A stretch of DNA of 64,000 bases. Origin: a virus. The translations under genes were made by a program, and so were the position numbers. The notes under the pieces are model-generated. The model had not been told where the DNA came from, searched no databases, and saw nothing but the letters and a program-made list of their open reading frames with translations. Positions 4,266 through 16,505 of the stretch are shown here, one piece after another (positions within the stretch are counted from its first letter, which is position 1; each line of letters starts with the position of its first letter). The DNA is taken from the IMG/VR virus record IMGVR_UViG_3300027763_002006, positions 1-64,000 of that record; one strand, written 5' to 3'.

Positions 4266-4514
4266 TTATTCACCAACCAAGCGGCCTTTGAAAGGATGTT
4301 GCTTAGTAGGTTTGGCAAGTACTTGGCCTATGCTCTTTGCTTTTTCTTCACCGCCAACTTGGCCTACACGCTTTTGATCATCATCTAATTCTTCTTTGAT
4401 CTTTTCGCAGTCGTTGACACGCTTGCCTTTATTCTTGCCAGTGCCAGGTTGTGTGCCGACTTTTCGATGGCCGGGCCAACATTTCATTTCACTAAGAATT
4501 TCAGAGATACGCAT
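4266..4514 (-). CDS. Small protein with capsid-targeting-like leader and CWPG...NDC module
   Basis: MRISEILSE leader; TAATG coupling to the upstream gene. Confidence 0.7.
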   Translation of the reverse strand: MRISEILSEMKCWPGHRKVGTQPGTGKNKGKRVNDCEKIKEELDDDQKRVGQVGGEEKAKSIGQVLAKPTKQHPFKGRLVGE

Positions 4515-5947
4515 TACTTTTTGCTCTCGTAACCATCATCAGGGTGTGCGCCTGATTTAAGCACTTCGAAGTTATCGTCGTCGTAGCCCTTGTCTGCGAG
4601 TTTTTTGATGTATGCATCAGCGTCGGCTTTGTTGTTAAACGTGCTTTTTTTGTCCCATTTGTTGTCGTCAACCATATACCATACAACAAACTTGTCTGTA
4701 CCTGTAGATTCAACTTTAATGCCACCGCCCCATTTCTTTTCGCGATCCCACTTAACACCCATAGCTTTTTCTCTACGGTTAGTGCCTGCTTTATCTAGTT
4801 GCTCATTATCATCTGGTTTGTTTTCGTCTGCACCATATTTGCCTTTAGCACTATGTTTAATACCAGTTGCTGTTTTAGTTGTTTCGCCTTCAGAAACAAA
4901 ACGCAGAGTTTCGATCCATTCACGAACTTTCTTTGGACGGCCTTTACCGCTTTTGTAAGATTTCAATGCATCCAAAGTAACAAGTTCACTGGGTTTATCA
5001 AACATGACACCTTCGTCGTTTTCCCACTTACCTACTACTAGATATTTTTTACCTTTTTCAATAACTGCCATAGCACCAGTTCTGCCGCCAACAATTTTAC
5101 GATCGCCGTGTGTGCGTTTAGATTTATGATACCAGCTTGAATAATCACCAAATTTAGTTCCTGCTTCATCTGAGCCTGTAACTCCAGCATTAGGACGGCC
5201 TACGCTACGTTTGACCGGAGATTTGCCTTCTGGATCTTTAGTTGGCTCAATGGAGTAGCCCGTGTCTGCATTATATTTGCGGCTATAAACTGTTCCGCCC
5301 GAGTCAGGATTCTTTGATCTGGAAAACTTACCAGTAGCACCTCTTTCATCTTGAGCACTGGCTCGAACGGCGGCCATCATCTCGTCCCATCCTTCTTTCA
5401 TCTTTGTTTTCTTAGATTCGTACATACTTTCTTGACGTGGCATCATTGACATGTTTGCTTGTGGTAATGCAGGAACATCTGGATTGTTGCCGCCAACGTA
5501 ATCATGTACATCACGATCGAATCTCATGTGAACCCATTCATAGGGATCGCCATCTCGGCCTTTCATAGTACCATATGGCATTTCGCCGTGGTCGCTGTAG
5601 TAATCATACAATGCATGATATAAGTCATCGCTCATATCACCACCAGCTACAAAGTTTTTAACTTCGTGCTTGAACTTGCCGACAATGTGACGCATTGTGT
5701 TATCGTTTTCCATGACCATTGTTGGATTTAGATTGGCCAGGCCTTCTAAGAATTGTTCGCTGGTGCCATTGGCAACTGCGGTTTCATATAAACCAAGAAC
5801 GTACCTAGCACTGTTAATGCCCAGTTTAACTTGAGTGTTACCTACAGTAATAACTGCACCAGTCTTATTAGCCACAGCTTCAGAGATCTGTTTTAAGTTA
5901 TTAGTACCTTGTAGGGTATTTTGTTGATATAGTTCAAATAGTTTCAT
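4514..5947 (-). CDS. Modular hypothetical protein (putative internal head polyprotein)
   Basis: MKLFEL leader; multiple xxE-delimited segments. Confidence 0.65.
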   Translation of the reverse strand: MKLFELYQQNTLQGTNNLKQISEAVANKTGAVITVGNTQVKLGINSARYVLGLYETAVANGTSEQFLEGLANLNPTMVMENDNTMRHIVGKFKHEVKNFVAGGDMSDDLYHALYDYYSDHGEMPYGTMKGRDGDPYEWVHMRFDRDVHDYVGGNNPDVPALPQANMSMMPRQESMYESKKTKMKEGWDEMMAAVRASAQDERGATGKFSRSKNPDSGGTVYSRKYNADTGYSIEPTKDPEGKSPVKRSVGRPNAGVTGSDEAGTKFGDYSSWYHKSKRTHGDRKIVGGRTGAMAVIEKGKKYLVVGKWENDEGVMFDKPSELVTLDALKSYKSGKGRPKKVREWIETLRFVSEGETTKTATGIKHSAKGKYGADENKPDDNEQLDKAGTNRREKAMGVKWDREKKWGGGIKVESTGTDKFVVWYMVDDNKWDKKSTFNNKADADAYIKKLADKGYDDDNFEVLKSGAHPDDGYESKK

Positions 5948-5949
5948 AA

Positions 5950-14221: not shown

Positions 14222-14620
14222 TTATCCTACGTGTGCCGCAATTTGTTTACAAAGAGCAAAAAATACATCATCCGGCCAATCTTTCTTAAACATATTTACA
14301 CGATATGTTACATAGCGAATATTACCATGTATGTAACCTTGGTTGGAATTTATTCTATCTAAACTAGCTTGATTTGGACTGGCAGCACCTGCTGGAACAA
14401 ACGCCACTCCAGTTAAAGCACATTTCCAGCCTTGTTTATTAATAACTTCCCATGCATCGGCTGCTGTTATATTTACAGGAAAGCCTTTTCTTTTTGCTTC
14501 ATATGTTTGTCTACTGAATACACGACTCCAAGTAGAGTGTAATGGATTTGAACTATCATAACCAGGCAATTGCTTTGCATTGATCTTTGGTTTTGCTGTA
14601 TCTAATTCGTTTATTTTCAT
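14222..14620 (-). CDS. HNH-type endonuclease-like protein
   Basis: KCALTG...SLDRINSNQGYIHGNIRYV...NMFK. Confidence 0.75.
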   Translation of the reverse strand: MKINELDTAKPKINAKQLPGYDSSNPLHSTWSRVFSRQTYEAKRKGFPVNITAADAWEVINKQGWKCALTGVAFVPAGAASPNQASLDRINSNQGYIHGNIRYVTYRVNMFKKDWPDDVFFALCKQIAAHVG

Positions 14621-15765
14621 TGTGGTGTCCAACGCTTTCTTGGCACAAACTTCACGTTGCCGAATTGTTTATTTCCATCTGCATAACGCACACGACCTTC
14701 GCCGTTGGTGTCCCAGATATCTGCTCGGGGTCCTGACTCAATTTGGTCAATGACATTGTCTTTTAATATTTGTATAGCACGAACAATTTTAAATATCTCT
14801 TCTAATACATTGCCCTGTGCAGAATCTAATTCTTTGATCTTTGCCTGCTTTGGTGCGCTAACTTTAGTAGTCATCCATTGAAAGAAATGCTGTGTGCTGA
14901 TACTATCTAATTGTTTTGCTTTGGCACTTTGATTTACATAGTTATAAATGATCTGCTTTAAGTCGCTTAATCCAGGTACACCTTGTAGGAATGCGTCAAC
15001 TTTATTTGCATGTTGCTTGATATGATTCTCTACTTGTTGAATCATTGTAGTATCAACCTTAACTGGTGCTACATTGTATATTGGACCCAATACAATTAGT
15101 CTAGGATTAGCATTAAACATTGTAAAGTCTTTGATAGGAATTTGAGCTGAATCAGGTGCACCGTGTTCAGTAAAATAAGCATGTCCGACAACCATGACTT
15201 CTGCACTGGCAATTCTACGACCTAGTTCACTGTCTGCTCGTACATGATAACATGTTTGGCTTTTGGGATTGGGACAGAATGTATATACTCCGTCCTTTAA
15301 TTCTGGCGGGCTTAAAAATAACGCATCGGCATATACATAAAATGTATTATTGCCATCCAAGTCTTTAGGAGTGCCAGGTTCAAACAATGGTGCTAGGCCG
15401 GCAAATTTATCAGCAAACTGTTGACGTGCGGCAACTTCTTCTGGAGTAACTGCTTTGCCTGTGCTCATGATATACTTGGCCACATCTTCGCCGCTTTGTG
15501 GCATAACACCTTTGCTCCATTGAGCATGTCCATGCGGAGGAACAAATACACCGTTCTCACGACCCCAATATATTTGAGGATTACCATCCCACTTCATACG
15601 AACACTACTACTACCTTGCTCTGTGTTCATATCCTTTAAATGTTCCAATGCTTCGATAGTACCTTGACTGCCATAAAAGAATACAAGATCCTCTAAGTGA
15701 TTAAATGCTCGCCCTAGTCGAGGATCTACGGCTTCTAATAATTCTTTTAGTTCTAATAATCTCAT
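14617..15765 (-). CDS. KxDG ligase-like nucleotidyltransferase (DUF6267-like)
   Basis: HLEDL, MKWDGNP (ligase motif I-like), GEGRV, VKFVPR. Confidence 0.65.
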   Translation of the reverse strand: MRLLELKELLEAVDPRLGRAFNHLEDLVFFYGSQGTIEALEHLKDMNTEQGSSSVRMKWDGNPQIYWGRENGVFVPPHGHAQWSKGVMPQSGEDVAKYIMSTGKAVTPEEVAARQQFADKFAGLAPLFEPGTPKDLDGNNTFYVYADALFLSPPELKDGVYTFCPNPKSQTCYHVRADSELGRRIASAEVMVVGHAYFTEHGAPDSAQIPIKDFTMFNANPRLIVLGPIYNVAPVKVDTTMIQQVENHIKQHANKVDAFLQGVPGLSDLKQIIYNYVNQSAKAKQLDSISTQHFFQWMTTKVSAPKQAKIKELDSAQGNVLEEIFKIVRAIQILKDNVIDQIESGPRADIWDTNGEGRVRYADGNKQFGNVKFVPRKRWTPQ

Positions 15766-16505
15766 AGTCGGTTTAACATGTTACGGAACCATTCGTTAGT
15801 ACCGACTCTGCTTTCTTGTTTAACTTCTTTCCAGTTAGCATCTGCTCGACCACGTGCTAATAATTCTGCGGCCTGTTGTTGTGGTAATGCTGCCAATATA
15901 CTTTCAACACTACCCAATACTGCCGGATCACTTCGGCCAGTTAAAATCTCCGCTATCTTGGCTAAGTCATCTGTGACAAAGTCTGCTTTCTTACCCAGTC
16001 CATCACGGGCAAATAATCCCTGCCAAGCACTCCACATATAGCCCTTGTCTTTGGCCAGCATGGCCATTAATAATTGTTTGTTTACACCTTTATAAGGACT
16101 GCCTTTTGGAATATCGTGTGTATGAAATTTAGCAATCTGCGGTGCATTGGCAGTTACCATGATGTCGACTTGGTGATGTGCTCGACCCACAGGAACATTC
16201 ACATGAACATTAATACCTGTTTGTGCTGTGGCCAGACCTTGTTGAGCAATATAATCATTTAATGCCTTACGTGCTGTTTTAGCATCCTTGGCATTGAAAT
16301 AAGACATTACTGCGGCTTCATCTGCTAGTACGTCCATGTCGCCACTTTGATGTCCATGCTTGGGTGTGGCAGCACTGCCAACTGGTATAACTGTAATGCC
16401 AGTGCCCTGTAATGCGCCGTTAATTGTTTTTAGAATAACAGGAACGTCTTTATGGTCAAATGGCGTAGCATCTGCAAATACATTACCGCCTTCATTTAAT
16501 ATCAT
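15762..16505 (-). CDS. DNA polymerase beta-superfamily nucleotidyltransferase
   Basis: VGS...SGDMDV...QVDIM (GS, DxD, third Asp); MILNE-GGNVF start. Confidence 0.75.
   Translation of the reverse strand: MILNEGGNVFADATPFDHKDVPVILKTINGALQGTGITVIPVGSAATPKHGHQSGDMDVLADEAAVMSYFNAKDAKTARKALNDYIAQQGLATAQTGINVHVNVPVGRAHHQVDIMVTANAPQIAKFHTHDIPKGSPYKGVNKQLLMAMLAKDKGYMWSAWQGLFARDGLGKKADFVTDDLAKIAEILTGRSDPAVLGSVESILAALPQQQAAELLARGRADANWKEVKQESRVGTNEWFRNMLNRL

Follow-up and report, generated by a model that had tools for sequence, protein, structure and literature searches.

A shared N-terminal leader resembling the T4 capsid-targeting sequence on an array of unrelated proteins of an uncultured jumbo phage

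The window analysed here, a stretch of 64,000 nucleotides, is the start of a 92,215-bp viral contig from IMG/VR (record IMGVR_UViG_3300027763_002006), and the subject of this work is an array of genes at positions 4,266 to 16,505 whose otherwise unrelated products share a short N-terminal pattern (referred to as the leader). CheckV put the completeness of the contig at 26%, which indicates a jumbo phage with a genome of roughly 350 kb. Nearly every gene of the window lies on the minus strand, including a T4-gp43-type DNA polymerase at 3..2522 whose nearest matches are Sinorhizobium phage Phosso (48%) and Agrobacterium phage Atu_ph07 (45%), with a Vibrio jumbo phage and Rak2-like phages among its further near matches. 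Megablast of the array against cultured phages gave zero matches, and tblastn with the ligase-fold protein of the array yielded nothing at 1e-5. The genes and boxes concerned are the following (aa, amino acids; ORF, open reading frame; scores refer to a leader profile):

4266..4514, minus strand: small basic Cys-containing protein of 82 aa, leader MRISEILSE (score 14.9)
4514..5947, minus strand: 477-aa protein, leader MKLFEL (score 11.0), no Pfam or PHROG family
5950..6870, minus strand: leaderless 306-aa protein, translationally coupled to the upstream 69-aa leader ORF (overlap aATGGATAA)
6851..7060, minus strand: 69-aa ORF with leader MKIKELISE, Gly/Ala-rich stretch and basic tail, in that order; an ATAAATA box lies 12 nt upstream
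7097..8452, minus strand: 451-aa protein, leader MRLLDLKLTE (phrog_3560, E = 2.6e-37)
8470..9846, minus strand: modular 458-aa protein, degenerate leader MRADQF (score 5.8), weak DUF6934 match at aa 103-166
9848..12631, minus strand: 927-aa amidoligase-domain protein, leader MKYLELKEQLLNE (Amidoligase_2, PF12224)
12636..14213, minus strand: 525-aa HxGH (cytidylyltransferase/NMNAT-like) nucleotidyltransferase, leader MKINQVLVE, GVAEG joint motif at aa 204 (PHROG cytidyltransferase, E = 3.6e-12)
14222..14620, minus strand: 132-aa HNH/endonuclease VII-like nuclease, leader MKINEL (score 15.2; phrog_3322 endonuclease, E = 1.1e-19)
14617..15765, minus strand: 382-aa DUF6267 protein, leader MRLLELKELLE (Pfam DUF6267, E = 1.1e-15, 58.4 bits, cut-off 27)
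15762..16505, minus strand: 247-aa protein of the conserved first array gene, minimal MILNE N-terminus; adjoins the ligase-like gene in all related loci
18782..19318, minus strand: 178-aa protein, weak leader MLIEEIIDE (score 2.4); ATAAATA box 12 nt upstream
32597..32995, minus strand: 132-aa protein, leader MRLDEFLD (score 10.7; phrog_7595)
32997..33827, minus strand: 276-aa protein, leader MRFSELTE, Gly/Ala-rich hydrophobic segment and GVAEG joint motif at aa 175 (score 14.3)
7066-7072, 8460-8466, 12650-12656, 16528-16534, 18729-18735 and 19324-19330, minus strand: late-promoter-like ATAAATA boxes (sequence match)

A preliminary description of this DNA had listed 13 N-termini with a common pattern on unrelated proteins, and all 13 were present at their positions on the minus strand. 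Ten are strong leaders, defined by the regular expression ^M[KR][ILVFYMA].[EDQ][ILVFM] (starts at 4514, 5947, 7060, 8452, 12631, 14213, 14620, 15765, 32995 and 33827), eight of them within one 12-kb block and two at 32.6-33.8 kb; most of these M-[KR]-h-x-[EDQ]-h leaders (h, hydrophobic) continue into h-x-E. The other three listed N-termini, at 9846 (MRADQF), 16505 (MILNE) and 19318 (MLIEE), are weak. In the automatic gene call, which leaves out the overlapping ORF at 7060, the expression matched 10 of 145 ORFs, against 0.26 expected from composition (P = 2e-13); measured against the rate after internal methionines, the same count gave P = 6e-11. Eight of the ten matches fell within ten adjacent genes (P about 7e-8, corrected for block position). 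Past the leader, the proteins are mutually unrelated (E > 0.1 in every pairwise blastp). The common pattern was thus upheld as clustering far above chance, with ten strong and three weak members.

Three of the starts needed correction. The 14620 start is the first ATG, four codons into a TTG-started ORF, and the 19318 start is an internal ATG of ORF 18782-19348. The 7060 start belongs to a 69-aa ORF of its own (6851-7060), the stop codon of which overlaps the start of the leaderless 306-aa gene, and which is kept as a separate small leader ORF in the related loci L008 and L012. A frameshift fusing the 69-aa and 306-aa ORFs was considered and dropped, the coupled ATGnnTAA overlap fitting instead.

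A scan of IMG/VR with the window's ligase-fold protein provided a set of 80 related loci, in which 313 of 2073 ORFs bear the leader; once the leader is removed, these proteins form 34 clusters and at least 30 unrelated families. Their leader consensus reads M-[KR]-[ILF]-x-E-[LIF]-[LIF]-E and, past the positions fixed by the regular expression, position 7 is hydrophobic and positions 8-9 are rich in Glu. A [LIFVM]-x-E motif with its E at positions 7-16 occurs in 85% of the unique leaders vs 19% of other N-termini. Among orthologues of the ligase-fold protein the leader changes in length by indels while M-R-h-x-E-h is retained, and an h-x-E-[A/S/K] junction is kept immediately N-terminal to the conserved domain. 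In two AlphaFold2 (AF2) models the leader residues (1-16 of the ligase-fold protein and 1-11 of the 7097-8452 protein) are disordered, with a predicted local distance difference test (pLDDT) below 50, and the fold alignments begin past the leader, showing that in these models it sits outside the folded domains.

G001, a close relative of 235 kb, has the array genes in the order of the window, and its ligase-fold protein shares 91% identity with the window's. Across close relatives the array core is conserved and accessory cassettes are gained or lost, every one of them leader-bearing. Cargo in other loci includes a SleB-type peptidoglycan hydrolase with a peptidoglycan-binding domain, an HD_4 domain protein, a lead for a T7 gp0.7-like kinase, and tiny basic peptides.

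Late-promoter TAAATA motifs had been noted ahead of several of these genes, and an ATAAATA box indeed stands 12-31 nt upstream of six starts in or next to the array (7060, 8452, 12631, 16505, 18707 and 19318). Overall the box is depleted (11 observed vs 24 expected), and on the contig it is biased towards the coding strand (16 coding to 1 other). It is not specific to the array, because in G001, which encodes a gp55-type late sigma factor, many non-structural genes follow the same box. The box is frequently found exactly 11-13 nt ahead of the ATG, and many such genes have no Shine-Dalgarno site. Lying so close to the ATG, it would give near-leaderless mRNAs.

This spacing bears on the possibility that the N-terminal pattern carries no peptide signal and reflects a translation-initiation constraint, with A/U-rich early codons favoured in genes without a Shine-Dalgarno site or 5′ leader. 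Several array genes do lack an AGGAG-type site, and some ATGs lie only 12 nt past the box, suggesting near-leaderless mRNAs. However, many genes of G001 with the 12-nt ATAAATA spacing fail the regular expression, and the conserved leader positions keep constant residue classes, with an acidic/hydrophobic alternation as in an amphipathic helix, while their codons are diverse (AAA/AGA/CGT/AAG; TTA/CTA/ATT/TTT). This codon variability implies that the peptide itself is under selection and that an RNA-level signal is unlikely; we consider an initiation constraint highly improbable as the source of the pattern.

Independent evidence came from the virion proteomes of two cultured phages. That of Atu_ph07, the nearest cultured lineage for which such data exist, comprises 131 proteins, and for 102 of these no function has been assigned (PMC6102473). 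All 906 called ORFs of this phage were scored with a leader profile trained solely on uncultured loci (threshold at least 4.5), and the published virion list (PMC6102473, Supplementary Table S5, 140 entries) was mapped onto the ORFs by exact predicted mass and gene order; an order-consistent chain placed 135 of the 140 entries, where a first, mass-based mapping had placed only 80. Virion proteins made up 14 of the 20 profile matches vs 121 of the 886 other ORFs (odds ratio 14.8, P = 2.5e-8), and nine of the ten best-scoring leader ORFs were in the virion proteome. The leader therefore predicts virion proteins in this cultured relative.

Eleven tandem Atu_ph07 genes, gp53-gp63 (39484-50592), encode proteins of mostly about 29-31 kDa that are all in the virion proteome and start with M-[RK]-W-x-Q-L-[TN]-E type sequences or MRLFQLLETAEE. 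When this paralogous array is set aside, virion proteins still account for 8 of 14 leader matches. Another virion-detected profile match is gp199 (MKLTELFNPLTE), a small post-portal protein, and the amidoligase of the window has a homologue (blastp 2e-26) in gp196, whose leader is weaker (MRWQDISSKKLTE) and which is represented by 14 peptides in the virion proteome. Atu_ph07 (PMC6102473) thus shares with the window the DNA-polymerase clade, the leader type, a tandem leader array and an amidoligase homologue, whereas most of its cargo families are different. The text of PMC6102473 contains no paralog, N-terminal, propeptide, cleavage or internal protein wording and does not mention the shared N-terminus.

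The leader M-x-x-[FL]-x-x-F-[LF]-x-E occurs on five proteins of cyanophage S-CREM2, every one of them detected in the virion (PMC10665884): gp154, a cytidylyltransferase (MKNFSSFLTE), gp6, a SAM (S-adenosylmethionine) lyase (MKDFDSFLEE), gp13, the kinase gp14, and gp136. According to the S-CREM2 authors, such enzymes recur in cyanophage virions (PMC10665884). The resemblance to the window lies in a homologous HxGH nucleotidyltransferase in purified virions, M-K-x-F-x-x-F-L-x-E leaders and a Peptidase_S77 (PMC10665884), with weaker similarities to the HNH and small-Cys modules; the S-CREM2 leader is nearer to T4's than that of the window is. The text of PMC10665884 holds no targeting, propeptide, N-terminal or internal protein wording, and in the open-access literature we found no paper tying a leader of the capsid-targeting sequence (CTS) type to cyanophage or jumbo-phage cargo.

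The detection of leader proteins in the virions of both cultured phages also speaks against the leader being an uncleaved docking helix that builds a cytoplasmic multi-enzyme complex, for instance for nucleic-acid repair or modification, of which the proteins would be members and not cargo. Such a complex would suit the synteny of the array core (ligase-fold protein, HxGH nucleotidyltransferase, amidoligase and 247-aa protein) in many contigs, and its position next to replication genes, as in Melnitz and cyanophage ACG-2014f. Yet the peptidoglycan hydrolase, the HD-domain protein and the tiny basic peptides carried as cargo elsewhere fit delivery better than a single complex, and a docking helix appears improbable.

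A further line of evidence was provided by the head genes of close relatives. A Peptidase_S77 (T4 gp21-type) is encoded by the three long relatives G001, G002 and G004, with portal and major head protein confirmed in G001, and also by Atu_ph07 and S-CREM2. In G001 the regular expression matched 13 of 321 ORFs: nine in the array, two in a second cluster, one doubtful TTG ORF, and a 70-aa protein encoded between portal and protease, at the position of T4 gp67. The latter starts with MKLFEV, to which the leader MKLFEL of the window protein 4514..5947 is almost equal. The small portal-protease protein of G002 starts with MILRELF, its array ligase with MRLRELF, and the small protein of G004 with MLLRELF.

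The presence of the leader on a protein of the head module also bears on a role as a tag for a cytoplasmic partner, either a phage ClpA/B-type unfoldase working with host ClpP in timed degradation or a chaperone such as DnaJ, virion association then being incidental. N-termini of the M-basic-hydrophobic type look like one of the classes of signal recognised by ClpX. The window encodes a ClpA/B-type double AAA+ protein at 44459-46660 (also at L073 5872-8112 and L032 6164-8410), and the array of G002 and G004 has a ClpB-like gene together with a DnaJ gene immediately upstream. A tag of this kind, however, leaves the h-x-E-[A/S] junction, the leader on the portal-protease protein and the virion enrichment in Atu_ph07 unexplained, and we judge it unlikely. 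Still less probable is a recognition sequence for a co-encoded modifying enzyme, as in ribosomally synthesised and post-translationally modified peptides (for example by a radical-SAM enzyme). Radical-SAM-like genes, judged by N-terminal sequences only, lie near the array in L021 and G001, but the 92-kb contig gave zero Radical_SAM matches, and such a sequence would account for neither the virion enrichment nor the head-module protein. None of the four alternatives accounts for all three of these observations: the virion enrichment, the h-x-E junction and the head-module protein.

In T4, prohead protease gp21 cleaves after L/I-x-E, and the 10-residue CTS suffices for targeting, positions 4 and 7 mattering for targeting and positions 8 and 10 for processing (PMC9026906, PMC3012670). 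Substrates in the T4 record include gp24 (MAKINELLRE), Alt (MELITELFDE), gp67 (MEGLIE) and internal proteins (IP) IPII and IPIII (MKTYQEFIAE). Like the CTS of IPI, IPII and IPIII and the propeptides of Alt, gp24, gp67 and gp68, the window's leader is a sequence of about 10 residues on unrelated proteins that ends in (L/I)-x-E. The hydrophobic/acidic spacing is also alike, MAKINELLRE of gp24 matching MKINEL and MKINQVLVE of the window after a one-residue shift; a gp21-family protease is encoded, here in close relatives, and the locus is variable, as are the T-even IP loci (PMC3012670, PMC9026906). In contrast to T4, the window consensus is one residue shorter ahead of the first hydrophobic position, and its position 2 is Arg as frequently as Lys. 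The cargo genes number about a dozen instead of three or four, and the cargo consists mostly of large enzymes or multi-module proteins of up to 927 aa instead of small basic proteins. The array also differs in standing beside replication genes, in its possible internal QGVAEG joints, and in being known from sequence alone. The ejection (inner-body) proteins of phiKZ-like giant phages and the polyvalent injected proteins are comparable in that a gp21-related protease cuts many head-internal proteins after Glu and in that these travel with the DNA (PMC9026906, PMC7824862); the phage lineage is distinct, and no common N-terminal address tag is described for these systems in the literature examined.

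Taken together, these data suggest that the shared N-terminus is quite probably a T4-type capsid-targeting propeptide. The array genes would be expressed late in infection, and the leader, an amphipathic stretch of about 8-13 residues (M-[KR]-h-x-E-h-h), would bind the scaffolding core during prohead assembly, so that the attached proteins would become enclosed in the prohead. A gp21-type prohead protease would then cut after the leader-terminal h-x-E, and perhaps also at internal Q-G-V-A-E-G joints; the freed enzymes would remain alongside the DNA inside the head and accompany it into the host, ready before phage gene expression. For the phage of the window, packaging, core binding, cleavage, ejection and the role of the enzymes in the host are proposed by analogy with these systems. 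The core idea of the preliminary description, a CTS-like and protease-trimmed leader on a library of enzymes, withstood all the tests applied and is backed by the Atu_ph07 and S-CREM2 virion proteomes; the promoter motif that it mentioned proved general to the phage, and two of its enzyme assignments (see below) found no support.

Several points weigh against this interpretation. Besides the three weak leaders, the array contains one gene (5950-6870) without any leader. Six of the 14 virion matches of Atu_ph07 are paralogues in one array and hence not independent, and the assignment of gp numbers to ORFs in that phage depends on predicted mass and gene order. The S-CREM2 leader motif was composed after the data had been seen. 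Both virion preparations were purified with polyethylene glycol or CsCl, so that carry-over is possible, and the S-CREM2 authors themselves caution about carry-over of abundant proteins (PMC10665884). Neither a prohead protease nor a major head protein was found on the 92-kb contig, and the protease is absent from five further related fragments too, such that the co-occurrence of leader and protease rests on the three long relatives and the two cultured phages. As proof of late co-expression, the non-specific ATAAATA box was rejected. Finally, packaging in the window's own phage is deduced from its sequence, as is leader cleavage in this phage, its relatives, Atu_ph07 and S-CREM2.

With regard to the cargo, the amidoligase protein (9848-12631) matched Pfam Amidoligase_2 over residues 218-420 (E = 3.3e-10, 40.7 bits, cut-off 22). 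The HxGH nucleotidyltransferase (12636-14213), with a Pfam CTP_transf_like match under the cut-off, has homologues in Melnitz gene 18 (2e-16) and the virion-detected S-CREM2 gp154 (1e-5). In the DUF6267 protein, K58-x-D60-G61 is invariant across 28 sequences. Its AF2 model (pLDDT 88.6) found only RNA and DNA ligases as top fold matches by VIA-align, with modest Z scores of 5-6 (REL1 6.2, T4 Rnl2 5.8-5.9, DNA ligases 5.2-5.7; alignments beginning at residue 16-18), and Foldseek on this model returned no significant match; a covalent-nucleotidyltransferase (ligase) fold is therefore a putative assignment. For the 7097-8452 protein, the model (pLDDT 73) matched HinP1I (Z 6.5, 194 residues aligned) and MspI (Z 6.4), with the next best at 4.5, and an Atlas lead pointed to RE_HaeIII-like clusters, in line with a predicted restriction-endonuclease-like (PD-(D/E)xK type II) fold for its C-terminal 350 aa. 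PDB sequence searches with three cargo proteins gave nothing.

The proposed enzyme library accordingly found support for the amidoligase, the HxGH nucleotidyltransferase and the HNH nuclease, with the restriction-like nuclease and the ligase-fold protein as predicted members. An ADP-ribosyltransferase (Alt-like) domain in 8470-9846, suspected at aa about 214-325, found no Pfam, PDB-sequence or Atlas support, and an acetyltransferase of the GNAT family in 18782-19318 reached only 13.4 bits with Acetyltransf_1 (cut-off 20.7, E = 0.09). The 247-aa protein (15762-16505), only tentatively a nucleotidyltransferase, matched no family in Pfam, PHROG or other family searches, and its candidacy as a relative of Atu_ph07 virion protein gp65 was dropped (blastp E = 1.5; its own hidden Markov model without match). 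The 4266..4514 protein weakly resembles part of S-CREM2 gp160, which was detected in the virion, as well as a module inside Melnitz gene 18; the 32597..32995 protein is homologous to the C-terminal module of Melnitz gene 18 (3e-18). Orthologues of the 32997..33827 protein in G001 and G002 retain the leader, and relatives' orthologues of 8470-9846 bear strong leaders. Gly/Ala-rich hydrophobic stretches directly follow the leader in the 6851-7060 and 32997-33827 proteins, which may be membrane-active ejection proteins.

The larger cargo proteins appear to be built from exchangeable parts. Domains are swapped among close relatives within the nucleotidyltransferase and the 8470-9846 family, and Melnitz (L002, MZ577097) combines in one protein three modules that the window encodes as separate leader genes: its gene 18 (8001-9953) specifies a 650-aa leader protein joining an HxGH nucleotidyltransferase to modules of the 4266-4514 and 32597-32995 types. 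Residues about 214-325 of the 8470-9846 protein were found in this genome alone, inserted at ENF-type junctions; the module on their N-terminal side also occurs in L008, the one on their C-terminal side in G001 and L010.

At domain junctions a Q-G-V-A-E-G (and D-V-A-E-N-F) motif was observed, in the contig only in 12636-14213 (aa 204) and 32997-33827 (aa 175), both leader proteins. All five occurrences in G001 are in proteins of the cargo clusters, the motif is also found in L009, L010, L059 and L083, and the relatives' orthologues of the leaderless 5950..6870 protein contain GVAEG joints. Across the 80 loci, leader proteins show an enrichment of the motif of about tenfold per residue; it is absent from G002. 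As Q-G-V-A-E-G contains V-A-E, it could be an internal prohead-protease site, which would make the large cargo proteins polyproteins. This might in turn indicate a plug-in cargo system common to Atu_ph07-like phages and the uncultured T4-type jumbo phages related to them, in which a tag of about 10 residues loads any protein and multi-module cargo is cut at the joints, a generalisation that we put forward tentatively and that may well prove too broad. If it holds, modules could be shuffled between phages at the joints.

That a conserved CTS is carried by diverse internal proteins is well known from T4 and the T-even phages. The present system differs in lineage (Atu_ph07-like phages and uncultured jumbo T4 relatives), in its shifted consensus, in how many and how large its cargo proteins are (mostly enzymes), in their position beside replication genes and in the possible joints. 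If the leader is a capsid address, the proteins delivered by the virion could be read from sequence in a large group of T4-related jumbo phages, most of them uncultured, and such proteins are the first phage factors to face host defences. Reading the leader in this way already accounts for several of the 102 function-unknown Atu_ph07 virion proteins and suggests why cytidylyltransferases and kinases recur in cyanophage virion proteomes. As candidates for early host takeover or counter-defence, the window offers the ligase-fold enzyme, the HxGH nucleotidyltransferase, the amidoligase and the HNH and restriction-like nucleases, to which the relatives add the peptidoglycan hydrolase, the HD-domain protein and the kinase-like protein. 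With the leader as a tag, such capsids might also be packed with foreign proteins, a use already made of the T4 CTS.

Elsewhere in the window, Pfam matches at 54267-59599 revealed a phage-borne SUF iron-sulfur cluster assembly operon, comprising SufB, a glutaredoxin, a SufC-type ABC ATPase, a short SufD-like fragment, a SufS-type aminotransferase, SufE, an FeS_assembly_P protein and an IscA/HesB-like protein.

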